Positions 7,675 to 64,000 are shown, counted from the stretch's first letter. The stretch: DNA of 64,000 nt from an uncultured Gemmatimonadales bacterium (GCA_963851265.1 CAWKNZ010000003.1:1-64000); one strand, 5' to 3'. Notes: generated by a model from the letters alone, not told the origin. Translations and numbers: made by a program.

Positions 7675-9078
7675 TCACGCCGGCGCGCCCCCGAAGAGCG
7701 ACGACCACGCCGGCTCGACCGCGCGGTGACCGCCGTCGCGCACGGCCTTGGCCATGCGCACCGCCATGTCGGCCATGTGCTCGACCACCCACTCGAAGTA
7801 CGTCGGGGTGAGCGAGTAGATGTCCATGTCGGGCGCGGGGTTCATGAAGTCGATGGCGTACGGAACGCCGCCGCGGATCGCGAACTCCATCGAGTTCATG
7901 TCGTAGCCTAACGCATGGCAGAGCGCGCGGGCGTCGCGCACGATCTTGGCGCCGAGCTGCGGGCTGAGGTGCGCGTGGTCGACGATGTACTTGCGCTGCT
8001 TGGGGTCGTACTTCATCGGGAGCACCTCGTCGCGGCCGATCACTAGGCAGCGCACGAAGTGCTCGAACTCGATGAACTCCTGCACGATCATGGTGAGGAG
8101 CCCCGAGGTGTTGTAATTGTGGAGCAGCTCCTGGGGCGTGCGGCAGACGTAGACCTCCTTCCAGCCGCCGCCGTGCGCGTCCTTGAGGATGCACGGCATG
8201 CCGATGTAGTCGATGATACCCTGCCAGTCGAGCGGGTACTCGAGGTTGCGGAGCGACTCGCTCGGGACGATGCCCGGCACGTACTCGCGGTTGGGCAGGA
8301 CCACCGTCTTGGGCGACGCGACGCCCAGCCGGTCGGCGAGCGACGCGCCGAAGAACTTGTCGTCGGCGCTCCACATGAAGGGGTTGTTGACCACCGCGGC
8401 GCCGCGCAGCGCGGCCTGCTTGAGGTACGTGCGGTAGGTGGGCACCTCGTGTGAGATGCGGTCGATGAGCAGGTCGTACGCGGGCGGGTCGTCGAAGCGG
8501 GGCGCGCCGATCTTCGCGTACTCCGCGACGACGCCGGCGTCGCGGCGCTCGACCGCCTTGAAGAACTCGGGCGGGAAGGACCACTCGCGTCCGACGAAGA
8601 GGCCGACGCGCGCGTCGCGCGTGGGCGTGTGGACGGCCGGCGCGGGGGCGCCGATCGGTGCGCTGACGCCACCGTCCTCGGTGACGAGGTTCTCGTCGGC
8701 GTCGGCGATCTCGACGGCGCTCGGCGCCTCGGGCGCCCGCATCTCGGGGATCCCCGCGGCCGTACCGCGCGCCGCCGACGCGCGCGCGCCCGGGTGCCCC
8801 GCTTCGGGCGCGGGCTCCGAGCCGGGCGCGTGGTCCGAGGTGCCCGGCGCGTACACGTCGGGCGCCTCGAAGTTGGGCGCGGGGCCGGTGCTCACCGCGC
8901 CCGCTGCCGCGTCGCTCGGCGCGCCGATGGGTGCGGCGATGGGCGTCCCGATCGGCTTCTCCCTGCCCGGCGCGTTCGGATCGCCCTCGGGGGTGAGCGG
9001 GCCGGTCGCGGCGGACGCGGCGGCGGACGACTTGGCGCCGACCTTCTTGATGCGAGGCTGCTTCTTCTTGTCGCTCAT
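7675..9078 (-). CDS. RimK/glutathione synthase-like ATP-grasp protein with a long Pro/Ala N-terminal extension
   Basis: DRISH, NNPF..ADDKF, ILKDAHGGGW, VQEFI, AIDFMNPAPD. Confidence 0.85.
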   Translation of the reverse strand: MSDKKKQPRIKKVGAKSSAAASAATGPLTPEGDPNAPGREKPIGTPIAAPIGAPSDAAAGAVSTGPAPNFEAPDVYAPGTSDHAPGSEPAPEAGHPGARASAARGTAAGIPEMRAPEAPSAVEIADADENLVTEDGGVSAPIGAPAPAVHTPTRDARVGLFVGREWSFPPEFFKAVERRDAGVVAEYAKIGAPRFDDPPAYDLLIDRISHEVPTYRTYLKQAALRGAAVVNNPFMWSADDKFFGASLADRLGVASPKTVVLPNREYVPGIVPSESLRNLEYPLDWQGIIDYIGMPCILKDAHGGGWKEVYVCRTPQELLHNYNTSGLLTMIVQEFIEFEHFVRCLVIGRDEVLPMKYDPKQRKYIVDHAHLSPQLGAKIVRDARALCHALGYDMNSMEFAIRGGVPYAIDFMNPAPDMDIYSLTPTYFEWVVEHMADMAVRMAKAVRDGGHRAVEPAWSSLFGGAPA

Positions 9079-9100
9079 CGGTCGAGAAGGGTGTGAGGGG

Positions 9101-9823
9101 TCAGTCGTGGCCGCCGACGTACATCCGGATCATGCGCTCCCACCACGGCCAGTCGTGGGCGAAGCCGCGCCACTCGCGGAGCGCGTTGCCGATGCCCTGC
9201 GACCAGAGGAGTCCGGAGAACGCGCGGTTGTTGTCGAGCGCGGGGTCGTCGAGGCCGATCGCCATGATGAGGTCCTGCCGGCGGTGGAGCGCGAGCTTGT
9301 CGCCGCTCATCGGCGCCGCGGCCAGCGCCATCGGGTTGACCTGGTCGACCGTGCCGTCGCGCTGGCCGTGCGTGAGTCGCAGGATGTCGTAGCTGCCGCT
9401 CATCCCCACGAGGCGGCGCACGACGTCGGGGTGGCGCATCGCGAACACGGCCGCGTCGTACGCGCCGAGCGAGGCGCCCGTGGCGATGATGAAGTCGTTG
9501 GGGTTACGCGAGTAGCTGAACGGAACGACTTCGTGGTAGACGTAGTTGTCGTACTGCAAGTGGCGCCACGCGCGCGCGCCGACGTGGAGGTCGCGGCGGT
9601 ACCAGCTCTCGTCGTGCACGTGGTGCAGGCAGTACATCTGCAGCCAGCCGTTTCGCAGATGGTCGCCCAGGACGTACTGCATGCGCCGGTCGGGCCACTC
9701 GTAGTACGTGCCCATGGACGTCGGGAAGACGAAGAGCTTCGCCCCGGCGTGGCCGTAGACGAGCAGGTCCATCGGCTTCCCGTCGAGGGCGGGGCTGTGC
9801 CAGCGGTGGTGTTCGGTGTGCAT
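9101..9823 (-). CDS. Esterase family alpha/beta hydrolase
   Basis: YGHAG...FPTSMG, GASLG nucleophile elbow, HDWPWW. ATG overlaps the upstream TGA (TGATG). Confidence 0.88.
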   Translation of the reverse strand: MHTEHHRWHSPALDGKPMDLLVYGHAGAKLFVFPTSMGTYYEWPDRRMQYVLGDHLRNGWLQMYCLHHVHDESWYRRDLHVGARAWRHLQYDNYVYHEVVPFSYSRNPNDFIIATGASLGAYDAAVFAMRHPDVVRRLVGMSGSYDILRLTHGQRDGTVDQVNPMALAAAPMSGDKLALHRRQDLIMAIGLDDPALDNNRAFSGLLWSQGIGNALREWRGFAHDWPWWERMIRMYVGGHD

Positions 9824-10644: not shown

Positions 10645-11858
10645 GCGGCGTAGAGCCGCAAGTCGGTGCCGACCGCGTCGGCCATGTCGAACAGCGTTTG
10701 CTTGTCGGGGTGGCGTACGGTGACGTAGCCGTCGGAGATGAGCGTCAGCACCCAGTCGCGGCGCGACGCCCCGACGGGGAGCAGGTCGACGCCGACGACC
10801 GCCGAGCCGAACCGGCGGTACAGGTCGTCGAGCCCGTCGATGCGCACGATGCGCCCCTGCCCCTCCGCGCGCTTGAAAATGTTGGCCACGTAGTACGCGC
10901 GCGACGGCACCTGGGAGAACGTCCCCTTCAACTCGGCCTCGGCGTAGCCGCCGAAGAGGTCGATGTCGGAGTTGTAGTTCATCAGGTCGACCGTGCGCGC
11001 GCCCGCCGGCCGCGCCGCGATCTCGCCGAAGACCACCTCGCCGTCGCTCTTGCGATACCACTCCATGTGCGTGAAGCCGGTCTGGAACCCCAGCGCCGCG
11101 AGCACGTCGTGGCCCTGCTGCACGCCGTCCTTCACCCACTCCGTGTCGATGTCGCGGAGCGAGAGCGTCTGCGGCGAGATCCACTCGAGCGTGCGCGCGA
11201 CGAGCGGGCGCGGGCGGTAGTAGCCGACGTGCTCGTAGAGGACGCTGCCGCCGGCGCAGACCGTGTCGTACGTGAACTCCTCGGCGTCGATGAACTCCTC
11301 GACGTTCACGGTCGCGACGTGGCCGAGGCGCTTGAGCGCGGCCTCGAGCTCGGCGGCGTCGTCGACGCGGAACGTGTCCATCGAGCCCGCGCCGTCGATG
11401 GGCTTGATGATCGCGGGGTAGCCGACGGCCTCGACGCCCTCGCGCACCTCGGCGGCGGTGGTCGCGCGGCGGTGGTAGGGCACGCGGACGCCGGCCGCGG
11501 CGACGGCCTGCTTCATCAGGTCCTTGTCGCGGAACAGGCGCGCCTGCTCGACGCCCATACCGGGAACGCCTAACGCCTCGCGCAGGCGCGCGGCGAGGAT
11601 CACGCCGGGCTCCCAGAGGCAGACCACGCGGTCGAAGGTGACGCGGCCCGCGGAGGCGCGCTGCACGGCGGCGACCGCGCCGGCCTCGTCGCGGATGTCG
11701 GCCTGGACGTAGCCCGAGAGGTGGTGGCGGGTCATCTCGGGGAGCTGCGACTCGGCGACGTCGCTCAGGCCGAAGACGCGCGCGCCCTGCCGCGCGAGGC
11801 CGCGCACGAAGAGCGGCATCTCGTCGGGGTACCCGGGGGCGATGAAGAGGACGTTCAT
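10641..11858 (-). CDS. ATP-grasp ligase (L-amino-acid ligase-like)
   Basis: FRDKDLMK, IIKPIDGAGS, VEEFI, FTHMEWY, GEIAARP. Confidence 0.92.
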   Translation of the reverse strand: MNVLFIAPGYPDEMPLFVRGLARQGARVFGLSDVAESQLPEMTRHHLSGYVQADIRDEAGAVAAVQRASAGRVTFDRVVCLWEPGVILAARLREALGVPGMGVEQARLFRDKDLMKQAVAAAGVRVPYHRRATTAAEVREGVEAVGYPAIIKPIDGAGSMDTFRVDDAAELEAALKRLGHVATVNVEEFIDAEEFTYDTVCAGGSVLYEHVGYYRPRPLVARTLEWISPQTLSLRDIDTEWVKDGVQQGHDVLAALGFQTGFTHMEWYRKSDGEVVFGEIAARPAGARTVDLMNYNSDIDLFGGYAEAELKGTFSQVPSRAYYVANIFKRAEGQGRIVRIDGLDDLYRRFGSAVVGVDLLPVGASRRDWVLTLISDGYVTVRHPDKQTLFDMADAVGTDLRLYAA

Positions 11859-11882
11859 GGGCGTGTGGTAGGGGGGCACGCG

Positions 11883-13109
11883 TTAGGCGAGTTCGACCCG
11901 CACGGTCGAGACGATCTCCGAGAGCGCCCGCTCGACCGCCGCGGTCTCGGGGTGGCGCACGAGGATCCAGCCGTCGCCCTCGTAGCTCGGGCGCGCGCCG
12001 AAGCCGGCGTGGGGCAGCTGCACGTCGGTGACGAGCGCGCGCGTCTGCTCCGAGAGGCGGTCGAGGCCGTGCGTGGCGCGGATCACGCCGCCCGCGCGGC
12101 CCTGCGCGCGGAGGAACGCCACGCCCGCGGCGTACTTGCGCGCGGGCGGGTCGAACGCGCCCTCGACCATGAGCCGCGCCCACGAGCGCACGAAGTCGGT
12201 GTCGGTGCTGCGCGAGACGAGCGTGGTGATCTGTGCGCCGGGCGGGCGGGCGGCGACCTCGCTCACCGCGACCGAGCCGTCGCGCCGGCGGAACCACTCC
12301 ATGTGCGTGAGGCCGGTGGTCATGCCTAACGCCGCGAGCGCCTCGTCGCCGACCCGCCTCGCGTCGTCGTACCGCGGGTCGTCGGCCTCGCGCGGCAGCA
12401 CGACGCACCACTGGATCCAGGGGTTCCGCACCGCGTCGAGCGGCGTCGGGTGGTAGCGCGTGAGCGAATGCCACACCGGGCGCCCGCCGACCGAGACGGT
12501 CTCGAGGGAGTGCTCCTCGCCGACGATGAACTCCTCGAGCAGCACGGGGTCGCCCGGCGCCGGGGGCGCGGCGGCCAGCGCGTCGGCCAGCTCGCCGTCG
12601 CTCGTCGCGCGAAAGGTCGCGACCGAGCCGGCGCCCGCGGGCGGCTTCACCACGACGGGGTAGCCGACGTGCGCGGCGAACGCCGCCGCCTCGGCCGGCG
12701 TCTCCGCGAGCGCGTGCCGCGCGCACGGCACCCCGGCGGCGCGCAGGATGTCCTTCATCCGCGCCTTGTCGCGAAAGTTGAGCGCGGTCTCGACGGGCAG
12801 GCCGTCGATGCCGAGCCGCGCGCGCAGCTGGGCGAGCGGGACCTGGAGCTGCTCGTACGCGCCGAACAGGCGATCCGGCGCGCCGATGCGGGCGCCGATC
12901 GCCTCGACCGCTCCGGCGAGCTGCTCGAGGTCGAGCACGTCGTCGACGCGCCAGTGCTGAGCCACGGCGCCGCGCACGTCGTCCGGCGCGTTGTCCAGCG
13001 GGTCCTGCGAGACCACGCCGAGCCGCACGTCGGGGAGCGAGGCGGTGGCCGTCACCATGCGGGCGGCACTGGGCGTGAGGTACGGCGCGGCGAAGATGAC
13101 CGTTGGCAT
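11883..13109 (-). CDS. ATP-grasp ligase (L-amino-acid ligase-like), paralogue of the downstream gene
   Basis: FRDKARMK, VVKPPAGAGS, LEEFI, THMEWF, EVAARPPG. Confidence 0.92.
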   Translation of the reverse strand: MPTVIFAAPYLTPSAARMVTATASLPDVRLGVVSQDPLDNAPDDVRGAVAQHWRVDDVLDLEQLAGAVEAIGARIGAPDRLFGAYEQLQVPLAQLRARLGIDGLPVETALNFRDKARMKDILRAAGVPCARHALAETPAEAAAFAAHVGYPVVVKPPAGAGSVATFRATSDGELADALAAAPPAPGDPVLLEEFIVGEEHSLETVSVGGRPVWHSLTRYHPTPLDAVRNPWIQWCVVLPREADDPRYDDARRVGDEALAALGMTTGLTHMEWFRRRDGSVAVSEVAARPPGAQITTLVSRSTDTDFVRSWARLMVEGAFDPPARKYAAGVAFLRAQGRAGGVIRATHGLDRLSEQTRALVTDVQLPHAGFGARPSYEGDGWILVRHPETAAVERALSEIVSTVRVELA

Positions 13110-13217
13110 GGCGCGTTCCTGACCGGGCGGGACTGGCGGACCTGGCGAATGTAGCGCGCTCGGGCTTCGCCTCCCCGCGCGCCGTAGCAGGTCCGTTCCG
13201 CACCGGACGTGCCGCGG

Positions 13218-20029: not shown

Positions 20030-20049
20030 CCGGGCGAGCTGCCTAACGG

Positions 20050-25342: not shown

Positions 25343-27541
25343 GTGCCTCGTTCCGACCTCGCCGTCCGCACGCCCCTGGTGGCGGCGTCGCCGCGCGTCG
25401 GCGACGCCCGCTCGACGGTCGGCACGGCGGATGGCGCGACCACGCTGTGCGTGCTCGTGCTCGACGGGCGGGGGCGCGTGATCACCGCCGATGCGGCGGC
25501 CGCGTCGATCGTGGCCGGCGGCGGCTCATCCCTGAGGCGGGGCGTCGACCTGCCGACCGCGTTGCGCTCCGCCGGCGAGGGGACCGCCGCGCTCGCCGTC
25601 GCGAATGCGCTGGCGGCTCAGGACGGCGCGGAAGTGGTGTTCACCGTCCACGACGCGGTCGGGCTCGCGCGCGCGCGGTGGCGGATGGTGCCCATCCCAC
25701 CGCTGCCCGCGGCGGGCGCGGCGTGGACCGTCGTGGTCGAACGCGAGCCTAACGGTGCCCCGGGACGGCGTGAGGCCGAGACCCTGGCGGCGGTCGCGCG
25801 CGAGCTCGCCCGCGGCGGGGAGGACGAAACCGCGGCGCTCGCCAGGCTCGCGCGCGGCGCGGTCGCCCTGTTCGAGGCGGCCGGCGCGTGCGTCGTCACG
25901 GTGGACGGTCCGGACGACCGCGACACGGTGCCGGAGCGGCGCGCGCGCGTCGCCGCAGCGGCGGGGTCGCTCGAACCGCTCACCGGCCACGTCACTCGGC
26001 TGGTCGGCGAGCCGTTGCTGTTCGGCGCCGTCGCGCGCAGCGGGGACGTGGTCGTCGTCAACGACGCCGAACACGATCCGCGCGTGGATCCGCGCTACGG
26101 TCTGCCGTCCTCCGTGCGCCAGGTGCTCGCAGTACCGCTCGTCATCGACGACCGGATCGCTGCGCAACTCTGCGTGGTCAACGTGCCGCGCGGTGCCTTC
26201 GCCACCCCGGACGTGGAGCTGGCGCGGCAACTGGCCGACCACGGCGCACTCGCGCTGCGCAACGGGCGCCTGCTGGCGGCGCGCGCGCTCGCGCAGGCGC
26301 GCGCCGAAGCCGCAGGCGCGATCGCTCAGGCGGCGCTCGACGCCGACGACGCGCGGGCCGGCGCGGCCAAGATTCTTGCCGAGCTGGATCGCGTCGTTCC
26401 CTCGCGCGGCAAGCTGCTGAGCGTCAATGACCGCGAGCGCGGGGTGTTGCAATGCGTGGCCGCCATCGGCGACGCGTCGAACCTGGCCGGCACGGAACGG
26501 CCCGTCGCGGAGACCAACTGGTACGAGGCGCTCGCGCGTGGCGAGCTCGTCGACATTCCCGACCTCGAAGCGGCGCAGCGCGAGCGCGGCCTCGCCGCCC
26601 GACCGACTCCCTCGGGCCCCGTCGTGCTCGTTCCGATCATGGCCCGCGGCGTGCCCGTCGGCGACGTTTGCGTGCAGTACGCGGCGGCCGTGCCGTTCGG
26701 GGCCGCGACGCTCGACACGTTGCGCCTGCTGGGTCCGTCGATCGGGGTCGCGATGGACGTGCTGCTGCGCGACGAGCGCGAGCGTGAGCGCGCCGGGGAG
26801 GAGCGGCGCTGCGACGACCAGCTGCGCGAGGCCGAGAAGCTCGCCGCACTCGGCGAACTCGTCGCCGGCGTCGCACACGAGATCAACAACCCGCTCGCGG
26901 GCATCTCGGCGTTCGCCGAACTGCTCCTCGACGAGCCGCCCGACTCGGCGCTCAATGCCGAGAACCGGGAGGCCGTGCGCCTCATCAAGCGCGAGGCCGA
27001 CCGGGCGACCGCCGTCGTGCGCGACCTGCTGACGTTCGCGCGCGAGGCGGCCCCAGTCTGGGGCCCCGTCACTCTTCCCGTGTTGCTCGAGCGCACGGTG
27101 CGCGTCCGTGCGTACGCGGCGCGCACGGCGGGGCTCGACCTGCAGCTGGACGTTCCGCCCGATCTGCCCCCGGTCCGCGGCGACGAGCGCAAGCTGCAAC
27201 AGGTGTTCATCAACCTCATCGCGAACGCCGAGCACGCCGCGCGTACCGCCCCGGCGGGTGGGCGCCGCGTGACCGTGCGTGCGTGGCGCGACGGGACCGA
27301 CCGCGTCGCGGTCCGGGTGAGCGACACGGGCCCGGGCGTGCCGCCCGACGTGCTGGGGCGCGTGTTCGAGCCGTTCTTCACGACCAAGCCGCCGGGTGAG
27401 GGGACCGGGCTGGGGCTCAGCGTCAGCTACGGCATCGTCCAGGCACACCGCGGCACGCTGCGCGCACAAAATCTGCCCGCCGGCGGTGCCGCGTTCGACG
27501 TGCTCCTCCCGGTCGACTCGGGATTCCGCGAACCTCGATGA
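25343..27541 (+). CDS. GAF-domain sensor histidine kinase
   Basis: AHEINNPL H-box, QVFINLIANA, DTGPG, FEPFFTTK, GTGLGL; two GAF-like domains. Confidence 0.93.
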   Translation: MPRSDLAVRTPLVAASPRVGDARSTVGTADGATTLCVLVLDGRGRVITADAAAASIVAGGGSSLRRGVDLPTALRSAGEGTAALAVANALAAQDGAEVVFTVHDAVGLARARWRMVPIPPLPAAGAAWTVVVEREPNGAPGRREAETLAAVARELARGGEDETAALARLARGAVALFEAAGACVVTVDGPDDRDTVPERRARVAAAAGSLEPLTGHVTRLVGEPLLFGAVARSGDVVVVNDAEHDPRVDPRYGLPSSVRQVLAVPLVIDDRIAAQLCVVNVPRGAFATPDVELARQLADHGALALRNGRLLAARALAQARAEAAGAIAQAALDADDARAGAAKILAELDRVVPSRGKLLSVNDRERGVLQCVAAIGDASNLAGTERPVAETNWYEALARGELVDIPDLEAAQRERGLAARPTPSGPVVLVPIMARGVPVGDVCVQYAAAVPFGAATLDTLRLLGPSIGVAMDVLLRDERERERAGEERRCDDQLREAEKLAALGELVAGVAHEINNPLAGISAFAELLLDEPPDSALNAENREAVRLIKREADRATAVVRDLLTFAREAAPVWGPVTLPVLLERTVRVRAYAARTAGLDLQLDVPPDLPPVRGDERKLQQVFINLIANAEHAARTAPAGGRRVTVRAWRDGTDRVAVRVSDTGPGVPPDVLGRVFEPFFTTKPPGEGTGLGLSVSYGIVQAHRGTLRAQNLPAGGAAFDVLLPVDSGFREPR

Positions 27542-34140: not shown

Positions 34141-37100
34141 ACGCCTCGATTGCCAGCGCGGCCCAGGCGTCGCACGCGCTCTCGGCCCTCGACGCGCTCA
34201 CCGGGGCCGTGCGCGACCTGCTCGGCGCCGACGTGGTGCTCGCGTTCGGGTGGAGCGACGATCGGACCGCGCGCGTGCGCGCCGCGGCTCCCGCGCTGCC
34301 GGCAGGCGGCGCGCCCGTCGCGTGGCCCGCCACCCTGACGCTCGCGCGCCCGCCGATCGCCGCGCGTGGCGGCGTGCACGTCGAGCTCGACGTTCCGCGG
34401 CGGCTCGTGTCGAACGCGCTTCGCCTCGCGCTGCCCGTGCCGGCCCGTGCTGCCCTCGTGGTCACCGCCGGCGCGCCGGACGGCATCGCCGACGATGCGT
34501 CGCCGGGCGGACTGCTGGCGATCTGGCACACGGCGCGGCTGGACGCGACGGACGCGGCGTCCCTCGGAAGCCGGGTGGCCGGACTGCGCCCCGCCCTCGC
34601 GCGCGCACTCGCCGAGGACGGCGCGGAACTGGCGCACGACCGGCTCGCTGCGCGGCTCGCGGCGGTGATGACGACGAGCGCGCAGGCGATCGTCTTCGTC
34701 GACGCGGCCGCGGGGACGATGGTGAACGCAGCCGCCGCGCGCCTGCTCGGACTCGGGCCCGGCGCGGCCGACACCGCGCACGTGGCCGAGCGCATGGCCG
34801 CGCTGCGCGCGCGGGCGGTGAACGCGGACGAGCTGGAAGCCGACGCACGCCGCCTCGTCACCGACCCCGACGCGCGGCTGGAGCACTGGAGCTGGACCTT
34901 CGACGCGCCGGAACGACTGCACCTGCGTGTCGCCTCGGTGCCGGTGGCGCGCGGCCAGTCGCCGGCGTCCACCGGCCGACTCTGGACGTTCGACGACGTC
35001 ACGCGGGAGGTCGAGGGGCAGCGCGCCGCGCGCGCGAGCGAGGCGCGCTTCCGGGCGGCGATGGACGCCTCGCCGGACGCGTGCTTCCTGCTCGAGTCGG
35101 TCGGGGGCGCCGACGGTGGCGTCGACGATTTCGTGTTCATCAAGGCGAACGCGGGCGCCGGCGCGCTGTTAGGCATGCCCGCCGAGGGGCTCGTCGGCAA
35201 GCGCATGTGCGAGACATTCCCGACGGTGCGCGGCAGCGAGCTGTTCGCCCGCTATGCGGCGGTCGCGACGACTCGCGTGATATACGAGGGCGAGTACCGA
35301 ACGCGCGACCCGCGGACCGCCGCGGCGTGGCTCTCGCTGCAGGTCGTGCCGGTGGTCGGGACGGACGCCGCGGGGAGCGGGATCGCGATCACGGCGCGCG
35401 ACGTCACGGCGGCCAAACGGGCCGAGGCGGAGGCGCGGCTGGTGCACGACGTCACGCGCGTCGTGGGCACGGCGTCCGACGCGCGGGAGGCGCTCCGGGC
35501 GGCGCTGGCCGCCATGTGCACGTCCACCGGTTTCGTGTACGGCGAAGCGTGGGTGGCGGAGACGGTGGGGCACGACGACGCGACGCGGACCGGTCCGACA
35601 ATGGTGCAGGGCCCCGTCTGGCACGCCCCGGACGACGAACGCCTGCGCGCCTTCGCCACCGCGTCCGCCGCCTACACGTTCCGCCCGAGCCAGGGCCTAC
35701 CCGGGCAGGTAGTCGCCGCGGGCGCTCCGGTGTGGCTTCCCGACATCACCGACCCGCATGCGGAATTTCAGCGCGCGGCCCTGGCGCGGCGCACGGGAAT
35801 TCGCCGCAGCTTCGCCATCCCGGTGATGGCCGACCGGAGCCTCGTCGCCGTCCTCGCGTTCTACTCGCGGGAGGCGGGCGAGTGCGGTCGGGCGGAGCGC
35901 GACCTGCTGGAGGCCGTCGGCGCGCAGGTCGGGCCGGTGGTGCGGCAGAAGCTGGCCGAAGCCGCACTGCGCGAGCGCGAGGCCGAACTGCGCGCCCTGT
36001 TCGCGGCCATGCGCGACGTCGTGCTCGTGTTCGACGCCGACGGCACGTACCTGCGGGTAATGCCCACGATGCCGGCGCGCGCCCTCCAGCCGGTCCAGGG
36101 TGTGGTGGGGCAACGCGTGCACGACGTGCTGCCGACCGACGTCGCGGACCAGATCCTTGCGACCGTGCGCCGCGTGATCGCGACGGGCACCGCGCAGCAC
36201 CTCGATTACACGATGGACGCGCCCGGCGGCCCACGGTGGATCGCCGCGACGGGTTCGCCGCTCGGCCGCGACGCCGTGCTCTGGGTGGCGCGCGACGTCA
36301 CGGTTCAGAAGTCTGCCGAGGCCGCCGTGCGTCAGAGCGAGTCGCGCTACCGCGGCGTGCTCGAAAACCTGAGCAGCTTCGCGGTGCAACTCGACCGGGC
36401 GGGGCGGATCACATTCGTGAACGACGCGCTGCTGGCGGCTACCGGCTGGACGCGCGACGAGGCGCACGGCGCGGACTACTTCGCGCGCTTCATCCCCGAC
36501 GAACACGGCCTCGGCGCGGCGTTCGCGAGGACCGTAGGGCTCGGTCGGGCCGACGGCGTGCCCGCACACTACGAGCACGAGATCCTCACGCGGGACGGAA
36601 GGCGCCGCCTCGTGGCGTGGGACACCGCGGTGCTGCGCGACAACGCAGGGCAGGTCGAGGGTGTGTCGAGCGTGGGTCGCGACGTGACCGACGAGCGCCA
36701 CCTCGCGGCCGAGCGCGAACGTCTCGTGCGCGCGCTCGAAGACTTGGCCGAGCAGGACGATCTCACGGGACTCCTCAACCGCCGGGGGTTCGTGCGCATG
36801 GCCACGCAGGAGCGCAAGAGCGCGGCGCGCACGGGGCGGCTGGACGGCGTGTGCTACGTCGATCTCGACCGCTTCAAGCCGATCAACGACACGTACGGGC
36901 ACGCGGCGGGCGACGCCGCGCTGCGTGCGGTCGCGCGCGTGCTGCGCGACACCATGCGCGGCGCCGATTTCTGCGCGCGGCTGGGCGGCGACGAGTTCGC
37001 GGTGTACGCACTGGGGATCACGGCGGCGGGAGGCACACAGGTGCTGGCCGACCGGCTGCGCGGCGCCCTGGCCGCACACAACGTGGCCGCAACCGCCGCG

Positions 37101-39798: not shown

Positions 39799-39910
39799 TG
39801 GGCGGTGGACACGGCCCGGCGCTGGTGCAAGCGCGGTGCGAGCGCGGCGGCGCGTTAGGCCATGCCCGTCTCCGCCGGCGCAGCCGGGGTGCTACGCCGC
39901 CCGCGGGGCG

Positions 39911-40750: not shown

Positions 40751-40790
40751 GCGGTCGCCGCCCCGCGCCGTCGGGCGGACCGGCCGGCGC

Positions 40791-42200
40791 CTAACGCGCC
40801 GGCCGGTCCGCCCGGGCGGGGAGCGTCAGGGTGAACGCCGCCCCGCCCTGCGGCGCGGCGCCCGCGGTGAGGTCGCCGCCCAGCGCGCGCGCGACCCGCC
40901 GCGCGGCGGCGAGTCCGACGCCCGCGCCCGCGATGTGTCGCGTGCCCGCGAGCCGCACGGACTCGGCGAACACGCGCTCGTACGCGTCGGGGGGCACGCC
41001 GGGGCCGCTATCGTGCACGGCGAGCCAGCATCCGCCGTCCGGGCCCGGGCCACCGGCGACCTCCACCCGTCCGCCGGCTGGCGTGTACTTGCACGCGTTG
41101 GACAGGAGGTTGCCGAGCACCTGGTGTACGCGGGCAGGGTCGGTGTCTACCCAGCACGGCACGCCGTCGGGGGAGCCGACGCTGCAGGTCAGCGAGAGCC
41201 CCGCGCGGGCCGCGAGGGCGGCGTGTTCGGCGACCGCGTCCCGCGCCAGCGTTTCGAGCGACACGCGGTCCGGGCGTACGGCCAGCCCCCCACCCTCGGC
41301 CATCGCGACCGCGAGCATGTCGTCGACCCCGCCGAGCGTGGCCGTGATGAGCCGATGGCTGCGCGCGAGCGAGTCGGCCTGGCGCGCGTTGACCGGTCCA
41401 AGCAGCCCGTCGGCGACGAGCTCGATGTGCCCGCGAGCGGCGGCGAGCGGATTCCGCAGGTCGTGCGTCACGCCGCGCAGAACGGCCGCGCGCTCGGTGT
41501 GCGCGGTCTCCAACTCGCGGCGCTGCGATTCGGCGAGCGCGGCGAGGCGCGCGGTGCGCAGGCCCGCGCGCGCGAGCATGAGGACGCCCAGGACGGCCAG
41601 GCCGACGAGCACGGCGTCCGTCATCACCTCCGTGTTCCGGGCCCGCGCGATGGCCCGCGTCTCGTGCTCGGTGTAGCCCGAGAGCGCGCCGTCGAGCCCT
41701 TCGGCTGCGTCGAGGGCGGCGAGGCCGCGCGTGTCGACGTGCCCCTCGTGCCAGGCCGCGACGGTCCTCCGGAGGGTGTCGGCGGAGGCGCGGATCCGCT
41801 CGTCGGTGAGCGGCGCGACGAGCGAGTCGACGGCGCGGATGTCGGCCGAGACCGTCGCGTGCGCGAGTCGCCCGCGTTCGCTCGCGTTGGGACCCATCAC
41901 CCGCGCGCCCGTGGCGGCTTCGTACAACTCGACGCCGATTCCCGCCTCGAGATCGTTCACCGCCACGCGGGCGGGGGCGACGTGTTCGGTGAGGCGCCGC
42001 CGCGCCTGGAACGGTCCCACCGACGTCACCAGCGGCACGAGGGCCAGCGCGGCGAGCAGGACGATGACGGTGGCGAACGGAATCCAGAGGGCGCCGGAGC
42101 CGACGGGCCCGGTCGACGCGGGTTCGTGCGTCACGTCGCGCGTCGAGCCGGGCATGGAGGCGAGAAGGGGACCGGGTGGGGCGGAGCGCAGGCGCTGCAC
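40791..42200 (-). CDS. Membrane sensor histidine kinase (orphan)
   Basis: Two TM segments, THDLRNPL, NLLSNACKY, DSGPG, GAGVGL. Confidence 0.9.
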   Translation of the reverse strand: MQRLRSAPPGPLLASMPGSTRDVTHEPASTGPVGSGALWIPFATVIVLLAALALVPLVTSVGPFQARRRLTEHVAPARVAVNDLEAGIGVELYEAATGARVMGPNASERGRLAHATVSADIRAVDSLVAPLTDERIRASADTLRRTVAAWHEGHVDTRGLAALDAAEGLDGALSGYTEHETRAIARARNTEVMTDAVLVGLAVLGVLMLARAGLRTARLAALAESQRRELETAHTERAAVLRGVTHDLRNPLAAARGHIELVADGLLGPVNARQADSLARSHRLITATLGGVDDMLAVAMAEGGGLAVRPDRVSLETLARDAVAEHAALAARAGLSLTCSVGSPDGVPCWVDTDPARVHQVLGNLLSNACKYTPAGGRVEVAGGPGPDGGCWLAVHDSGPGVPPDAYERVFAESVRLAGTRHIAGAGVGLAAARRVARALGGDLTAGAAPQGGAAFTLTLPARADRPAR

Positions 42201-56740: not shown

Positions 56741-56820
56741 GTGCAGGGCGGGACGGAATCGGCACGCGCCGCGCGCCCCTCTCCTGCCCTTCCAGTGTAG
56801 CGCCCGTTCACGCCCGCCGT

Positions 56821-56880
56821 CGCGTGCCCCGCTCTCGCATGCCCCGCTCTCGCATGCCCCGCTCTCGCATGCCCCGCTCC
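56821..56880 (+). repeat. 15-bp tandem repeat x4 across the translation start
   Basis: CGC(A/G)TGCCCCGCTC(T/C) units, each with an in-frame ATG or GTG. Confidence 0.92.
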
Positions 56881-59800
56881 ATGCGCCGTTCCGCGCGCCG
56901 CGTCCGCCCCTGGCTCGCGGCCGTCGCCGTGTTCGCCGCCCCCGCGCTCGCCGCGCCCGCGGCCGCAGCGGCGCAGGTCGGCACGACCACCGACGTGCTC
57001 ACCGGCACGATCCGCGACCCCGCGGGCAAGCCGCTCGCCGGCGCGACCGTCACGGTCACGTCGGTCGAGACGCAGGTCGCCCGCACGCGCCAGACCGACG
57101 CCAAGGGACGCTACGTGATCGTCTTCCCCGAAGGCGGCGGGCGCTACCAGCTCTCGGCGCGCAGCATCGGCCTCGCGCCGCGCACGGTGCTCGTCCAGCG
57201 ACAGGTGGACGAGGACCAGCTGATCGCCAACCTCACGTTGGGCACGCCCGGCGCGAGCGGCACGCCGACGCTCGACCGCGTCGTCGTCCGCGGCCAGCGC
57301 AACGCGGGACGCGGCAACGACCGCCCGTCCCCGGGCTCGACCGAGCGCCTGCTCACCCCCGACCAGGTGCTGCGCCTGCCGATCGAGGACGCGAGCGACC
57401 TCACCGCCCTCGCCGCACTCGCGCCGGGTGTGGTGAGCATCACGGGCACCGACTCGACGGCGAACAGCTTCTCGGTCGCGGGGCAGCGCACCGACCAGAA
57501 CAACGTCACGCTCGACGGCATCTCGTTCGGGTCCAGCTCGATCCCGCAGGACGCCGTACGCAACACGCGCGTGATCACGAGCACGTACGACGTCGCGCGC
57601 GGGCAGTTCTCGGGCGGGCAGATCGCGAGCACCACGCGCTCGGGGACGAACCTGCTTCAGGGCAGCTTCACCGAGCAGTACCGCAATCCGAGCCTCGCGT
57701 GGTCGCCGGCTGGCGCGGGCGCGTTCGGCCAGAGCTACCTGCAGAACAGCTTCTCGGGCGGGATTGGCGGACCGATCATCAAGGACCGCCTGTTCGTCTT
57801 CGGCGCGTTCCAGCTGCGTGAACGCTACGACCCGATTCAGTCGCTCACGACGGCGAACGCGACGACGCTCGAGCGCCTCGGCGTGAGTCCCGATTCGGCG
57901 GCGCGCTTCCTCGGCGGCCTGTCGCAGTACGGCGTGGCGCCGACGCTCGCCGGGATACCGTCGCGACGCACCACCAACAGCGACCAGCTCTTCGCGCGCG
58001 TCGACGCCGTGCTGACGCAGAGCGAAACGCTCACGCTGCGTCTCGACGCCCGCCGTACGAGCGCCGACGCGACGCGCATCTCCGCACTCGGCCTTCCCTC
58101 GGCGGGAGGCACGCAGAGCCAGAGCGGCGGCGGCGTGTTCGGCTCGCTCACGTCGCAGTTCACCGCCACCGACGGACTCTTCGCCGGCGCGTTGATCAAC
58201 GAGGTGCGCGCCTACCGTTCGTTGGGCAAGCAGGCCACCGACGCGTACCTCGACGCGCCCGCTGGGCGCGTGCAGCTGATCTCCGCGCTGCCGGGGGCTG
58301 CCGGCACCGCCGGGGGCGTCGGGGCGACGGTGCTACAGTTCGGCGGCAACGCCTCGCTGCCGCAGGCGAGCAACAACACGGCGTTCGAGGGCACCGAGGA
58401 GCTGTCGTTCATCCCCGCCGGCCGGCCGCACCGCGTCAAGCTCGGCGCCCTGCTCAACGTGAGCGACCTCGACCAGACCACGGCGACCAACAGCCTCGGC
58501 ACCTACACGTTCTCGTCGCTCGCCAACTTCCTCGCCGACCAGCCCTCGCAGTTCACCCGCACGCTCTCGCCCACGCAGCGCCTGGGCGGGTCGGTGAACG
58601 CGGCCGTCTACGCGGGTGACACGTGGCGCGCCGGCCAGGGCGTGCAGCTGACCTACGGGCTCCGCGTCGAGCACTCCAACTACACCCACCCGCCCGCGGC
58701 GAACGCCGCGCTCGACTCGGCGTTCGGCGTGCGGACGGGCGCGTTCCCCACCGAGACGCACCTGAGCCCGCGCATCGGCTTCACCTGGGCGCCAGTCCGC
58801 GCCTCCGCGCCGAACGCGAACGCCGACGCACCGGGCGCGCAAGGCGGCGCGCCCGATGCGGGCGGACGCGGGGGTGGCGGGGGCGGCGGCTTCGGTGGCC
58901 GCGGGGGTGGCGGATTCGGCGGGGGCTTCGGCGGCGGTCGGACCGGCGGTCCGACGACGGTGATCCGCGGCGGCATCGGCGAGTTCCGCGGGCTGGCGCC
59001 TGCCGGACTGTTCGCCGCCGCGCAGGGCGCGCCGGGGTTCCTCGCCACGCAGTCGCAACTCGTTTGCACCGGGGCGGCCGTGCCCGCGCCCGACTACGGC
59101 GACTGGACGAGCGACCCCGCGGCCATTCCGTCGTCGTGCGTCGACGTTCCGATCGACGGCATTCCGGTGGGCGCGCCGGGCACTGGCGCCCGCCCCAATG
59201 CGGTCGTCATCGGGCAGGGGTTCCAGGCGCCGCGCGCATGGCGCGCCTCGCTCGGCGGCCAGCGGCGGGTCGGCGAGCGCACCGCCGTCTCGCTCGACCT
59301 CAACTACGCGCTCGGCGTGGCGCAGTACGGGTTCCGCGACCTCAACCTGAACACGGCGCCGCAGTTCACGCTCGCCGCCGAGGGCGGTCGGCCCGTGTAC
59401 GTGCCCGCGTCCAGCATCGTGCCGGCGACCGGGGCGCTCTCGCTGTTCAACTCGCGCGTCGACCCCGCCTTCGGCCGCGTCCTCCAGACGACGAGCGGGC
59501 TGCGGTCCGACACCAAGCAGGCCACGCTCGGCGTCAACACGAGCACCGCGCGCGGCCTCCTCCTGAGCGCGAGCTACACGTTCACGCGCTCGACCGACGA
59601 GTCGTCGTTCCCGGGATCGTTAGGCGGCGCGGGGGTCGCGGGCACCACGCCCGGCAACCCCAACCTCGTGCAGCGCGCCACCAGCGACCTCGAGCGCCGG
59701 CACCAGCTCCTCGCGACGATCACCTACCCGATCACGTCGACGGTCGAGCTGACGTCGATCGCCCGCCTCAACTCGGGCGCGCCGTTCACGCCACTCGTCG

Positions 59801-60759
59801 GCAACGACATCAACGGCGACGGCGCGCGCGACGACCAGGCGTTCGTGTTCAACCCGGCGGCCGCGTCGGACACGGCGGTCGCGGGCGGGATGCGCCGCGT
59901 GCTGGCCGCGGCGCCGGCGAGCGTGCGCCGCTGCCTCACCTCGCAGCTCGGCCTCGTCGCGGCGCGCAACAGCTGCACGGGCCCGTGGACCCCCTCGCTC
60001 GATTTTCAGGCCAACATCCGCCCGACCGTGTTCGGGCTCGACCGCCGCCTGTCGCTCTCGGTGTCGACGACCAACTTCCTCTCCGGGCTCGACCAGCTGG
60101 TCCACGGCTCCAACAACGTGCAGGGTTGGGGCAACCCGGGACGCCCGGACGCGACGCTGCTCACGGTGCGAGGCTTCGACCCCGCGTCGCGACAGTTCCT
60201 CTACACGGTCAACGAGCGCTTCGGACAGACGGGCGCGGGGGCGAACGCGTTCCGCGTTCCGTTCTCGTTAGGCCTCCAGGCGCGCCTGGCGATCGGACCC
60301 GACCCGGCGCGCGACCGGCTGCGTCAGGTGTTCGGCGATCCCGGCGCCAGGGGTGCCGACGCGTCCGCGGCGTTCAACGACCGCTTCGCGCGGCTGGTCC
60401 CCAACCCGATCGACACGATCCTCGCGCTCCGCGATTCGCTCGCGCTCACGCCGCCGCAGCTCGGGAGCCTCACGACCCTCCGCGATTCGCTCCGCGCCCG
60501 CAACGCGCCACTCGCGGACTCGCTGCGTGCGCGCCTCGCCGCGGCACAGAGCGCGCCCGACCCGCGGCAGGCGTTCGCCACGATCGCGCCGCTGCTGCAG
60601 CGCGCGAGGGCGAACGCCGCCGCGACGTTGACGGCCGCACAGGGAGTGCTGACGCCCGAGCAGTGGGCGCGGGTGCCGGAGAGCGTGAAGCGGCCGCCCC
60701 GCGGCGGGGTGGGCGGAGGAAGAGGAGCGGGACGACCGGGCGGCGCCGGCGGGCCGTGA
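56824..60759 (+). CDS. Oar-like TonB-dependent-type outer membrane protein with CarboxypepD_reg N-terminal domain and C-terminal LTxxQ domain
   Basis: LTGTIRD..G.PLAGATV, TDAKGRY, LDRVVVRG, GQFSGG..TRSGTN, SPRIGFTW. Start lies between 56824 and 56881. Confidence 0.9.
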   Translation: MPRSRMPRSRMPRSRMPRSMRRSARRVRPWLAAVAVFAAPALAAPAAAAAQVGTTTDVLTGTIRDPAGKPLAGATVTVTSVETQVARTRQTDAKGRYVIVFPEGGGRYQLSARSIGLAPRTVLVQRQVDEDQLIANLTLGTPGASGTPTLDRVVVRGQRNAGRGNDRPSPGSTERLLTPDQVLRLPIEDASDLTALAALAPGVVSITGTDSTANSFSVAGQRTDQNNVTLDGISFGSSSIPQDAVRNTRVITSTYDVARGQFSGGQIASTTRSGTNLLQGSFTEQYRNPSLAWSPAGAGAFGQSYLQNSFSGGIGGPIIKDRLFVFGAFQLRERYDPIQSLTTANATTLERLGVSPDSAARFLGGLSQYGVAPTLAGIPSRRTTNSDQLFARVDAVLTQSETLTLRLDARRTSADATRISALGLPSAGGTQSQSGGGVFGSLTSQFTATDGLFAGALINEVRAYRSLGKQATDAYLDAPAGRVQLISALPGAAGTAGGVGATVLQFGGNASLPQASNNTAFEGTEELSFIPAGRPHRVKLGALLNVSDLDQTTATNSLGTYTFSSLANFLADQPSQFTRTLSPTQRLGGSVNAAVYAGDTWRAGQGVQLTYGLRVEHSNYTHPPAANAALDSAFGVRTGAFPTETHLSPRIGFTWAPVRASAPNANADAPGAQGGAPDAGGRGGGGGGGFGGRGGGGFGGGFGGGRTGGPTTVIRGGIGEFRGLAPAGLFAAAQGAPGFLATQSQLVCTGAAVPAPDYGDWTSDPAAIPSSCVDVPIDGIPVGAPGTGARPNAVVIGQGFQAPRAWRASLGGQRRVGERTAVSLDLNYALGVAQYGFRDLNLNTAPQFTLAAEGGRPVYVPASSIVPATGALSLFNSRVDPAFGRVLQTTSGLRSDTKQATLGVNTSTARGLLLSASYTFTRSTDESSFPGSLGGAGVAGTTPGNPNLVQRATSDLERRHQLLATITYPITSTVELTSIARLNSGAPFTPLVGNDINGDGARDDQAFVFNPAAASDTAVAGGMRRVLAAAPASVRRCLTSQLGLVAARNSCTGPWTPSLDFQANIRPTVFGLDRRLSLSVSTTNFLSGLDQLVHGSNNVQGWGNPGRPDATLLTVRGFDPASRQFLYTVNERFGQTGAGANAFRVPFSLGLQARLAIGPDPARDRLRQVFGDPGARGADASAAFNDRFARLVPNPIDTILALRDSLALTPPQLGSLTTLRDSLRARNAPLADSLRARLAAAQSAPDPRQAFATIAPLLQRARANAAATLTAAQGVLTPEQWARVPESVKRPPRGGVGGGRGAGRPGGAGGP

Positions 60760-62212: not shown

Positions 62213-62265
62213 GAGCAGGTGACGACTCACGCCGCGGGCGGGCACCCGACCGACGCGCGACGAAC

Positions 62266-64000
62266 TTACGGTCGCCCGCCGCCGGGCGGTCCGCCGAACG
62301 CCTGGCGGAACGGGTTCTTGACGTCGTCGCCCACCTTGGCCCACTGCGCGGGCGTGAGGATCGCCTGCGACTGCTGCACGGCCTCCTCGAGGAGCTGGCG
62401 GCCGCGGGCGAGGTCGGGACGGATGGTCGAGAAGATGACCGCCGGGTCGGGGTTGCTGCCGAGTTTCTGGACCTTCGCGCGCAGGTCGGTTCGGAACCGC
62501 TGGTAGCGCGCCGCGAGCGAGTCACGCACGGGCTCGAGCTTGCGCACCTGCGCGGAGTCGAGGCCGAGCGAGTCGCGCAGGTCGATGAGCTTCGCGGCCG
62601 GGTTCAGGCTGGCGGCGAGCGCGGTGCTGGGTGCGGCTCCGCCCTGTCCGCCGCCGAGCAGGCCGGCGAGCGGACCGCCCCCGCCACCCCCGCCGCCCGG
62701 ACCGCCACCGCCCGGACCGCCGCCCCCGAAGCCGAACGCGCCGAAGGGGTTCGCGCCGTAGACGTATCGCGCCTGGATGCCGAGCTGGAACGTCTGCCGG
62801 AACACGGAGGCCTGGCCGGTCGTGTTCCCGAAGCGCTGGTTCACCGTGTACGAGTACGTCTGCGTCGTCGGGTTGAAGCCGTTGATCGCGAGCAGCGTCT
62901 GGTCGGGGCGCACCTGCTGCCCCCAGCCGCGCAGGTTGCTGGACCCGTGGAAGAGCTGGTCCAGCCCGGCGAGCGTGTTGAGCAGCGTGGCGGAGATCGT
63001 GAGGCGGCGTTGCAGGCCGAGGCGGTCGGGCTTGTAGTTGAACTGCACGTCGAGCCCCGGCACCCACGGCCCGCGGCAGCTGTTGCGCCCGGCCACCTGA
63101 CCGAGCTGCGACTCGAGACACGCCCGCGCCGAGCTCGGCGCGCTCGCGAGCACCTGCTGCATCGCGGCGGCGAGGGCGGGGTCGAGCCCCGGCGCCTTCG
63201 GGTCGAAGACGAACGCCGCATCGTTGCGCGCGCCGTCCCCGTTGACGTCGCCGTTGACGGTCGGCGTGTAGGGCGCGCCGCTCGTCAGGCGGCCGATGCC
63301 GGTGACCTCGAACGACGGGTTGAGCGGGAACGTCGCGGTCCCGATCAGGTTGTGCCGGATGTCCTGGTCGGCGCTCGCGAACGGCAGCAGGTTGGGGTTG
63401 CCGCGCGTGGGCGTCTGCTGGTAGCCGAACGCCGGCGGGCCGAACGCGTACGAGCTCTGGTCGCGGTTGCGCGCGACCGTCCACGACAGGTTGAAGATCG
63501 CCCCGCGCGAGCTGATGCCGTTGAGCGACGCGGTGACCTGCGCGTTGCGCGAGCGCAGCCCCGAGCTCACGTCGAGCACCTGGCCGAACGCCGCGTCGCG
63601 ACGGCTGGCGGCGAGCGACGTCGCGCCGGTGAGCGGCGAGATCGCGGTCGGCGAGACGAACACCGGCCGGTTGCCCTCCTGCGCGAGCGTGAAGCCCGAC
63701 CCCGCGGCGGTGTTGAGGTTCGCGTCGGTCACGCCGTACTGCGCGACGCCCCACGCGTAGCTCGCGTCGAGGCCCGCGGTCCAGCGCTCCCAGAAGCGGC
63801 GCGTGACGCCTAACGACGCGCGCACCGAGCGGGGGGAGCGGAAGTCGGGCGCGAACGCGGTCACCGAGGGCACCGCGCTCGAGGCGACCGCGCCCGGGAA
63901 GAGGGTCCCGGGGCGCTGCGTGCAGGTGGTCGGGATGGCCGACACGCCGCTCGCGAGGATCGCCGAGTAGTCCGGGCCGACGGGGTCGAGGCAGGTGATC
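62266..64000 (-). CDS. Oar-like outer membrane protein, C-terminal part (paralogue of 56824-60759); extends beyond the window
   Basis: Shared motifs: GVAQYG..D.NLNTA, SGAP.TP, DVNGDGARND.AFVF, CL.SQLG..A.RNSC.GPW, GLDQL.HGS.N..GWG. Confidence 0.9.
   Translation of the reverse strand, partial: ITCLDPVGPDYSAILASGVSAIPTTCTQRPGTLFPGAVASSAVPSVTAFAPDFRSPRSVRASLGVTRRFWERWTAGLDASYAWGVAQYGVTDANLNTAAGSGFTLAQEGNRPVFVSPTAISPLTGATSLAASRRDAAFGQVLDVSSGLRSRNAQVTASLNGISSRGAIFNLSWTVARNRDQSSYAFGPPAFGYQQTPTRGNPNLLPFASADQDIRHNLIGTATFPLNPSFEVTGIGRLTSGAPYTPTVNGDVNGDGARNDAAFVFDPKAPGLDPALAAAMQQVLASAPSSARACLESQLGQVAGRNSCRGPWVPGLDVQFNYKPDRLGLQRRLTISATLLNTLAGLDQLFHGSSNLRGWGQQVRPDQTLLAINGFNPTTQTYSYTVNQRFGNTTGQASVFRQTFQLGIQARYVYGANPFGAFGFGGGGPGGGGPGGGGGGGGPLAGLLGGGQGGAAPSTALAASLNPAAKLIDLRDSLGLDSAQVRKLEPVRDSLAARYQRFRTDLRAKVQKLGSNPDPAVIFSTIRPDLARGRQLLEEAVQQSQAILTPAQWAKVGDDVKNPFRQAFGGPPGGGRP

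Follow-up and report, generated by a model that had tools for sequence, protein, structure and literature searches.

Words and proteins of known systems and the copies in the window

The HIP1 octamer of cyanobacteria is hyper-abundant and under frame-independent selection, and a role in chromosome structure through a binding protein was proposed for it (PMC5861425, PMC4390886), a reader that was never found according to the cited part of that literature (PMC5861425). The uptake words DUS of Neisseriaceae and USS of Pasteurellaceae are short and non-palindromic, occur in thousands on both strands and in several frames, are scarce in foreign DNA and rRNA and have dialects (PMC2817400, PMC7811141). 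CdbA of Myxococcus xanthus is a small ribbon-helix-helix (RHH) protein with hundreds of sites both within genes and between them, a sequence preference, repeats one helical turn apart, little classical regulation and a role in chromosome organisation (PMC7156744), and the Omega (ParB) repressor of plasmid pSM19035 is an RHH dimer that reads a non-palindromic heptad and has heptad arrays at its own promoter (PMC9499535). The word described here shares these traits, or would share them under the reading that we favour, as far as the cited passages describe them.

The window (the whole stretch of DNA analysed, 64,000 nt) belongs to genome G000, and the word is the heptamer GTTAGGC, mostly present as CGTTAGGC. 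Twelve copies were found, 11 as CGTTAGGC and one, at 35168, as TGTTAGGC. They start at 11882, 35168, 39854, 59619 and 60267 on the + strand (n=5) and at 7906, 11568, 12324, 20041, 25747, 40789 and 63808 on the - strand (n=7), and every coordinate given for them in an earlier note on this DNA, as well as its count of 7 against 5 by strand, was correct. The expectation for the octamer in 100 dinucleotide shuffles of the window was 0.89 +/- 0.93, with a maximum of 5, against 11 observed, and all occurrences of TTAGG in the window are part of GTTAGGC.

Seven copies put TTA-GGC in frame. GCG-TTA-GGC is read on the - strand at 7906..7913 (Ala-Leu-Gly, ATP-grasp gene 7675-9078), 11568..11575 (ATP-grasp gene 10641-11858) and 12324..12331 (gene 11883-13109); TCG-TTA-GGC at 63808..63815 on the - strand (gene 62266-66054, which extends beyond the window) and at 59618..59625 and 60266..60273 on the + strand, both within the outer-membrane barrel gene 56881-60759; and CTG-TTA-GGC at 35167..35174 (+ strand, the TGTTAGGC copy) in the PAS/GAF/GGDEF gene 34137-37238. 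Among the remaining five, two coincide with stops: the + strand copy at 11881..11888 reads GCC-TAA-C on the - strand, the stop of gene 11883-13109, and the - strand copy at 40789..40796 reads CGT-TAG-GC, the stop of gene 40791-42155. Two are intergenic (20041..20048, - strand, between the convergent genes 17840-20029 and 20094-22079, and 39853..39860, + strand) and one, at 25747..25754 on the - strand, appears as GAG-CCT-AAC-G (Pro-Asn) in gene 25343-27541 (+). The same contexts had been reported before and came out again with independent gene calls, which derive from a custom codon model and no standard annotator, so that the frame counts carry its error. TTA had also been suspected to be rare outside the motif, and indeed 7/7 TTA codons of the window genes and 78% of those genome-wide lie inside the word.

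Window copies turn over at synonymous sites between relatives. The copy at 7906 is retained in G003 and G004 and synonymously lost in G001 and G159, the one at 11568 is retained in G001, G003 and G004 and missing in G159, the one at 12324 is retained in G004 and G159 and missing in G001 and G003, and the stop copy at 11881 is not retained in G001 or G003.

A genome-wide signal

The whole G000 genome contains 1,762 GTTAGGC, 885 on the + and 877 on the - strand, a density of about 1 per 2.6 kb and a 24-fold excess over a codon-shuffle null. Copies occur in each of the four open reading frames, at stop codons and in intergenic DNA, with 1,291 of the 1,762 within called genes, and CGTTAGGC is not equal to its own reverse complement. 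Hence the word is a genome-wide DNA-level signal that overrides codon choice, as the earlier note had proposed from the window. Its use on both strands and in four frames rules out translation-level control of the bldA type through TTA. The earlier argument against Chi or KOPS probably holds for strong polarity, which appears to be absent, and the local orientation skew tracks gene strand; as the genome is a draft, there may still be a weak bias, of at most about 2-fold.

C precedes the core in 79% of the copies and T in 14%, so YGTTAGGC describes the word better than the strict octamer; the surroundings of the copies in G000 showed no wider consensus and neither REP-like repeats nor IS footprints. 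The R-box of integron attC sites has the consensus GTTRRRY. The attC-like sites of relatives start with GCCTAAC and end with CGTTAGGC, the two bases found before the core, C and T, match these two ends, G000 itself has nine attC-like sites and an intI match, and in G048 and G055 the gene of an AP2-like protein (see below) adjoins attC-like sequence. The integron integrase could have left the copies as footprints or use them as chromosomal landing pads, the word being equal to the attC core of the lineage, but we consider this very unlikely. The intI gene is present in 22/31 relatives, word-rich or not, and was not found in the word-rich G008 and G018 (93% and 79% complete); attC-like pairs hold at most about 1% of the copies, paired inverted copies are depleted and other GTTARRY cores are rare in G000. 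In the window, no copy among the 12 has the inverted R''/R' partner 50-140 bp away that marks an attC site downstream of a cassette gene, and insertion does not account for synonymous copies in intact genes. In spelling the word is identical to the attC ends of the lineage, but more than 99% of GTTAGGC copies are lone double-stranded words inside genes without an inverted partner.

Copies avoid one another below about 300 bp in G000. Available Leu-Gly positions are used in 6/395 cases (1-2%) at less than 150 bp from another copy and in 17-26% at 300-4000 bp, control words show no such short-distance dip, and only 26 pairs lie 100 bp or less apart against about 70 expected from the 1,762 copies. 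Convergent spacers are rich in the word (1.42 per kb) and divergent ones poor (0.25), genes of low GC3 have less of it (0.13 vs 0.46-0.56/kb) and it is rare in rRNA regions. A 45-kb word-free gap of G000 (C1:182876-227962) contains parAB and parS-like palindromes. Six genomes had observed/expected counts in the 80 kb around parB of 49/52.9, 32/31, 80/99.8, 15/18, 14/18.4 and 12/13.1, and four others had 23/34.5, 23/38, 11/19.4 and 5/16.6; avoidance of the partition site holds for G000 but not generally, and it was therefore left out of the evidence.

All frames, both strands, scarcity in low-GC3 genes and rRNA and synonymous turnover make a signature like that of DUS or USS. ComEC is present in G000, and according to the cited part of the source a single site saturates the uptake of a short fragment and drive should lead to even spacing (PMC7811141). 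The word might then be an uptake (or recombination) tag amassed by molecular drive during natural transformation, the two small proteins described below having adapted later or being passengers. However, ComEC was found in 5/5 genomes checked and is equally present in the word-poor G047 and G147, the two genes that track the word encode proteins without a hydrophobic export signal, and the dialect of the word follows them. The depletion of close pairs is also unlike the USS of H. influenzae, of which 23% lie within 100 bp of another in the cited text (PMC7811141). On balance a tag of this kind is unlikely.

G000 contains an Eco57I-like m6A methyltransferase; the wider survey of its methyltransferases was by motif scan only. 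m5C is poorly seen by SMRT sequencing. A target whose frequency is raised by methylation-linked repair has been proposed for HIP1. HIP variants track methyltransferases in cyanobacteria (PMC4390886). Applied to this word, the idea is hardly credible: 39 GTTAGGC lie in 50 kb of a named plasmid record of the word-rich Gemmatirosa kalamazoonensis, yet the published SMRT motifs of this species are only RGATCY, ATGCAC and CCAGN7TCA (PMC3974934), so that the word is not among the three m6A motifs of this relative, with m5C poorly covered, and the methyltransferase type of G000 is also found in the word-poor G047 and G147. Among the analogies listed in the earlier note the best fit is the nucleoid-protein site, the evidence speaks against an m6A methylation site, and the uptake sequence stays as the main rival.

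Two candidate readers and the dialects of relatives

A nucleoid protein with sequence specificity probably has YGTTAGGC as its binding site, and the candidate reader in G000 is encoded outside the window, at C4:24564-24953. It is a predicted RHH protein with a lysine/alanine-rich, H1-like tail. The fold assignment comes from the sequence pattern and from look-alikes in the Atlas (DUF7557 at 0.93 and a cluster with RHH_1 (26%) at 0.92); distant members give weak antitoxin hits, Pfam and a PDB search with the profile gave no match, and the monomer model, with two helices but without a strand, found nothing with Foldseek. Residues Q14, T16 and W18 are invariant. The gene is present in G000 and in 4/220 other genomes of the order, those four being the densest in the word; G001, G003 and G004 carry it. 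Seven GTTRGG lie upstream of it in G000, the first rank among about 3,600 upstream regions (the next has 4). Among metagenomic homologues, at least two GTTRGG-type sites were found upstream in 11/17 of the longer form, and tail-less 58-aa homologues (n=14) have 0-1, though their host genomes are the densest. Such a promoter array is less special in G159, because triple arrays are common at gene ends there (28 matches). Among the 31 metagenomic contigs with the RHH gene (1-5 kb), six lack the word outside the promoter. No RHH relatives were found in viral_contigs, and 80 long loci from a pair search, a weak test, included no clear soil phage enriched in the octamer.

A second candidate was reached through another pair search; triple-array searches yielded mostly gene-end tandem repeats, and a sigma-factor gene with three upstream copies in G212 was dropped, its G000 homologues having none. 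This AP2-like protein is unrelated to the RHH candidate but has a similar basic tail. Its model (pLDDT 92; E6-11, E16-27, E33-42, H49-64) packs a three-stranded sheet on one helix and has as nearest DNA-binding match the AP2 domain of Plasmodium SIP2 (6sy0; Z 6.5, rmsd 2.4, 53 aligned), with 2gcc at Z 4.2. With Z under 8 the resemblance is at fold level only, and at that level the model agrees with an AP2/ERF-type fold. An Atlas AP2 cluster matches at 0.85, Pfam AP2 did not match, Foldseek returned nothing at E<=0.001, the PDB sequence search was negative and a comparison of A3 with A4 found them unrelated. Strong hits for the gene occur in 14/102 family genomes, all of which lack the RHH gene, and it was not found in G000; G012, G016, G017 and G018 carry it too. 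In 13 dense genomes 55 near-matches lie upstream of it against 11.0 expected. Outside the family 17 genomes of the order have a strong hit at only 3-33 copies/Mb, with few upstream sites (8 vs 3.9 expected, 14 scored), and no alternative word was seen in 100 kb each of the low-count carriers G072, G140, G231 and G032.

The earlier note had asked for related genomes, and the word is present in some Gemmatimonadales, patchily by genus and with dialects. In 101 family genomes (G011 was left out), 14/14 with at least 100 copies/Mb have one reader gene, never both, and 0/79 with less than 25 copies/Mb have either. The ratio of CGTTGGGC to control is 1.39-6.56 in eight RHH genomes and 0.62-1.31 in 16 dense AP2 genomes; it reaches 1.89 in word-poor genomes, and 1.38 and 1.84 in two sparse AP2 carriers. 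CGTTAGGD amounts to 1.4-6.5% of the word in RHH genomes and 15.6-54% in dense AP2 genomes, a gap that narrows, and vanishes for G218, when the highest background is subtracted. The secondary spelling therefore follows the reader, CGTTGGGC with RHH and CGTTAGGD with AP2-like, and the promoter arrays share the genome dialect, with GTTGGGC for RHH and CGTCAGGC, CGTAAGGC, CGTGAGGC and CGTTAGGT/G for AP2-like. On RpoB the RHH genomes do not form a single clade (AU p=0.0001), in quick trees with G000 itself absent, genus g1 represented by G004 and the AU test on 17/26 rows. Kin genomes are not independent, so there are perhaps only 2-3 real contrasts.

Both small proteins might also bind a word that another process, such as an enzyme of site-directed repair or recombination, creates and keeps, being its partners or regulated targets. 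That two unrelated folds came to one octamer is less puzzling if the word was there before them, tail-less RHH homologues have no promoter arrays, and G040, G030 and G037 have the word and neither reader profile; G040 (87% complete) has 208 copies/Mb, with 27/28 sampled copies inside genes. We consider this unlikely and rate it slightly below the uptake tag. In at least two separate branches a different small protein goes with different genome-wide secondary spellings, from which it follows that its specificity shapes the genome, and no third gene was found, short of a full phylogenetic profile.

A proposed chromatin word and described systems

Under the nucleoid-protein reading, the small, cytoplasmic RHH protein would organise or compact the chromosome. 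Its dimer would read the pseudo-palindromic word by the beta-ribbon bearing the invariant residues and its basic tail would hold flanking DNA. One site would serve a patch of about 300 bp, so a second site nearby would not be favoured. Arrays of weaker sites at its own promoter would be occupied only by surplus free protein, so that the amount of protein is tied to how many sites there are. Among the other word-rich relatives the AP2-fold protein would in most cases have this role instead. More tentatively, and with more doubt than belief, Gemmatimonadaceae may have a sequence-addressed chromatin whose 8-letter word was taken from the integron attC core and selected genome-wide to anchor a nucleoid protein, and whose reader was swapped more than once (RHH to AP2-like or the reverse, with H1-like tails), each swap retuning the spelling.

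If true, no earlier hyper-iterated word of bacteria would have had its intracellular reader identified, the manner of marking a chromosome would be one not yet described, and chromosome packing would be linked to integron sites, so that one may ask whether attC sites are guarded or exploited by the reader. Two small, easily expressed candidate readers with opposite spelling preferences make the idea directly testable: RHH should prefer CGTTAGGC over CGTTGGGC and need the final C, and AP2-like should take CGTTAGGN and not CGTTGGGC. A DNA-level demand that overrides codon choice is in any case shown in an abundant soil phylum. In the main texts of the open literature no publications on this word or either protein were found.

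The readers of DUS and USS are surface uptake proteins in the sources as cited, whereas the genes that co-occur with GTTAGGC encode small cytoplasmic basic proteins, and the word is shorter (7-8 bp), is built from the rarest codons and is depleted in close pairs, which are common for USS. For CdbA no interchangeable AP2-fold reader is known. Its motif is a loose direct repeat, in contrast to an exact word in codons at a 24-fold excess, and c-di-GMP is a ligand of CdbA, no H1-like tail being described in the cited passages (PMC7156744). Omega acts, as described there, on six local arrays of a plasmid (PMC9499535) and GTTAGGC consists of single sites over a whole chromosome. HIP1, finally, is palindromic, methylated and phylum-wide, with no identified binding protein in the cited part of the source (PMC5861425), whereas GTTAGGC is non-palindromic, absent from the m6A motifs of one methylome, patchy by genus and provided with two candidate readers.

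Genome-wide excess of GTTAGGC

The draft assembly of the genome under study (G000; 4.60 Mb, 12 contigs, with the window at contig C3:1-64000) contains 1,762 copies of the heptamer GTTAGGC versus 96 expected under an order-2 Markov model, and this word ranks first among heptamers with both order-1 and order-2 models. The preceding base is C in 79% and T in 14% of the copies, with no longer consensus. In the window (73.3% GC), the 12 copies described in an earlier note, 11 of them as CGTTAGGC, were recovered at the same coordinates. Shuffled windows gave 0.89 octamers and never reached 11, and independent gene calls returned the same codon, stop and spacer contexts. TTA had looked rare elsewhere, and indeed 7/7 TTA codons of the window genes, and 992 of 1,275 in all G000 genes, fall within the word. 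In 3,609 called genes, 1,281 copies were seen where a synonymous-codon shuffle predicts 52.7 (1,034 and 25.8 for CGTTAGGC); GTTGGGC was the sole one-letter variant clearly raised (2.6-fold; GTTCGGC 1.4). The proposal of a genome-wide selected DNA signal is thus borne out by 1,762 copies, in all open frames and on both strands.

The frame xxG-TTA-GGC was used in 989 of 7,839 chances (0.6% expected), GTT-AGG-C in 25 of 3,348 (0.02%), xxG-CCT-AAC in 194 of 1,108 (2.2%) and xGC-CTA-AC in 73 of 861 (0.8%). The word is also formed by 120 TAA and 82 TAG stops, and 285 copies lie between genes. Because all four open frames, stops and spacers use the word, the pressure is on double-stranded DNA and not on protein or translation. 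Density climbs with GC3 from 0.13 to 0.56/kb, and is 0.25/kb in divergent versus 1.42/kb in convergent spacers. Close pairs are depleted (observed/expected 0.2-0.6 at <300 bp; seven control words around 1), and an available [APST]-Leu-Gly position uses the word in 6/395 cases if another copy is no more than 150 bp away and in 17-26% at 300-4000 bp.

The lack of strand bias claimed earlier stood for the totals (885 on the plus and 877 on the minus strand), with local skew tracking gene direction. Hand sums for C2 900-1650 kb gave a Leu-Gly use of 96/576 on the majority strand versus 14/136, and a Pro-Asn use of 14/214 versus 7/59, leaving room for at most a weak replichore polarity.

In the window, the 18.8-kb word-free stretch at 40796-59618 is the fourth-largest gap of the genome, its size being within the chance range. 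The operon at 4800-15500 shows gains and losses of the word at synonymous positions across four relatives. The minus-strand cluster at 3855-15437 comprises a carboxylate-amine ligase-like gene, three ATP-grasp genes and esterase-like genes, and its gene order is kept in four other Gemmatimonadales (G001, G003, G004, G159). A 45-kb gap (C1:182876-227962) surrounds gidA-parA-parB and contains a variant parS-like palindrome, TGTGGCACGTGCCACA, found beside parB also in G001 and G004, with the usual parS form in other genera. General avoidance of parS by the word was rejected, holding in G000 but only weakly in four of ten relatives.

Two candidate word-binding proteins

A scan for K/A tails gave a single such ORF, a candidate ribbon-helix-helix (RHH) gene (C4:24564-24953, minus strand, 129 aa). 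Apart from G000 itself, its first 60 residues had matches in just 4 of the 220 remaining genomes of the order, the four densest; a profile search of 66 genomes added G001, G003 and G004, with nothing strong in the other 59. GTTAGGC density at 14/14 GTDB loci with a homologue was 1.5-14.8 per 10 kb. The alignment has a strand-helix-helix pattern with invariant Q14, T16 and W18, which we take to fit RHH; the assignment comes from Atlas look-alikes and weak antitoxin Pfam matches, and the monomer model is without the strand. The upstream 300 bp, common to a small divergent gene, contain seven GTTRGG sites (first of ~3,600): four GTTGGGC, one GTTAGGC and an inverted GTTAGGA pair. In G159, GTTGGGC repeats occur at 11 bp intervals. 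Among metagenomic loci (31 scored of 32 fetched), at least two upstream sites were found in 11/17 longer forms, with GTTAGG usually ~80-105 bp before the start, and in 0/14 tail-less 58-aa forms.

Close word pairs in word-rich genomes without RHH led to a second gene, AP2-like (93 aa, in G179), predicted to encode a K/A-rich arm and a domain of three strands and a helix (model, pLDDT 92). Its nearest structures are AP2 domains (6sy0, Z 6.5; 2gcc, Z 4.2), and comparison with the RHH profile found the two unrelated. Strong matches occur in 14 of 102 Gemmatimonadaceae genomes, RHH carriers none among them; the gene is also in G012, G016, G017 and G018, and a search of G000 did not find it. In 101 family genomes (leaving out G011; kin are not independent), one reader is carried by 14/14 with at least 100 copies/Mb, 4/8 with 25-100 and 0/79 with fewer than 25. 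The 400 bp upstream of the AP2-like gene in 13 dense carriers contain 55 near-matches versus 11.0 expected (27/33 loci grouped). Against this link, the gene occurs in 17 genomes from outside the family at a word density of 3-33 copies/Mb, upstream sites being few in the 14 of them that were scored, and three genomes 87-98% complete (G040, G030, G037) contain the word with neither reader gene found.

Spelling of the word and its possible role

Secondary spellings were tabulated in 24 reader genomes and 7 controls from 46 searched. The 8 RHH genomes had ratios of CGTTGGGC to its reversed control of 1.39-6.56; the range for the 16 dense AP2 genomes was 0.62-1.31, and word-poor genomes reached 1.89. 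CGTTAGGD relative to the word was 1.4-6.5% with RHH and 15.6-54% with AP2, a contrast partly due to background and with denominators mixing CGTTAGGC and YGTTAGGC counts. Each reader gene's own promoter array shows the same variants as its genome. RHH carriers appear in two places of a quick RpoB tree, one of them among AP2 carriers; an AU test (LG+G4, 17 rows) rejects monophyly of the RHH carriers (p-AU 0.0001). The shift of spelling with the reader, together with this lack of monophyly, argues that in two or more branches spelling tracks the protein and not the lineage, which is the strongest sign that the candidate readers recognise the word and influence how often it occurs.

A DNA uptake tag spread by uptake drive would account for the genomic signature of the word and for even spacing (PMC7811141), but gives no account of the tie to two cytoplasmic proteins, and ComEC was found alike in word-rich and word-poor genomes. 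As for a methylation target, 50 kb of a named plasmid from Gemmatirosa kalamazoonensis include 39 copies, while the published methylome lists three other m6A motifs (PMC3974934); an Eco57I-like methyltransferase (C7:579717-585511, adjoining a helicase-like gene) does not track the word, being in 5/5 family genomes tested, with or without it. We favour, with moderate confidence, a docking site of a sequence-specific nucleoid protein as the most likely role. Such a protein would dock about every 2.6 kb, its basic tail coating or bridging a few hundred bases, and the weak-site arrays might let the reader limit its own synthesis. A literature search found no description of the word or of the two candidate proteins.

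Distribution and likeness to integron sites

Across 221 genomes of the order, YGTTAGGC counts range from 2 to 4,963, high counts being scattered over genera of all three families and most genera being low. Short tandem runs of the word (period 9-18 bp) occur at gene ends in G159, G119 and G170, mostly at stops between convergent genes. A GTTAGG site pair is conserved between orthologous outer-membrane receptor genes of genus g41 (L329/L330; G100:C152:8751, G145:C9:597905). A sigma-70-family gene is preceded by an AT-rich promoter with three copies (L278/L343; G212:C14:32070-32131), and none was seen upstream of its G000 homologues. In the 100 kb sampled from G231 (L388-L392), the heptamers in excess stem mainly from an AGAAGTG-type repeat, probably a local tandem repeat.

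In low-count genomes the word forms arrays whose units start with GCCTAAC and end with CGTTAGGC, with an imperfect hairpin between, and from this organization we identify them as putative integron attC-like sites. G000 has nine such sites, at most about 1% of its copies, and an intI match; intI is present in 22/31 relatives and does not track the word. The intI matches of G000 (C6:3041-6044, C10:188936-211290) are in two pieces separated by ~2 kb, in which lies a serine-recombinase-like ORF, and the attC arrays hold numerous small toxin-antitoxin-like cassettes as well as IS copies. The AP2-like gene directly adjoins attC-like sequence in word-poor G048 (L359) and G055 (L352). The attC consensus is GTTRRRY, and a reader initially linked to integron sites is one possible account of the core shared by the word and attC.
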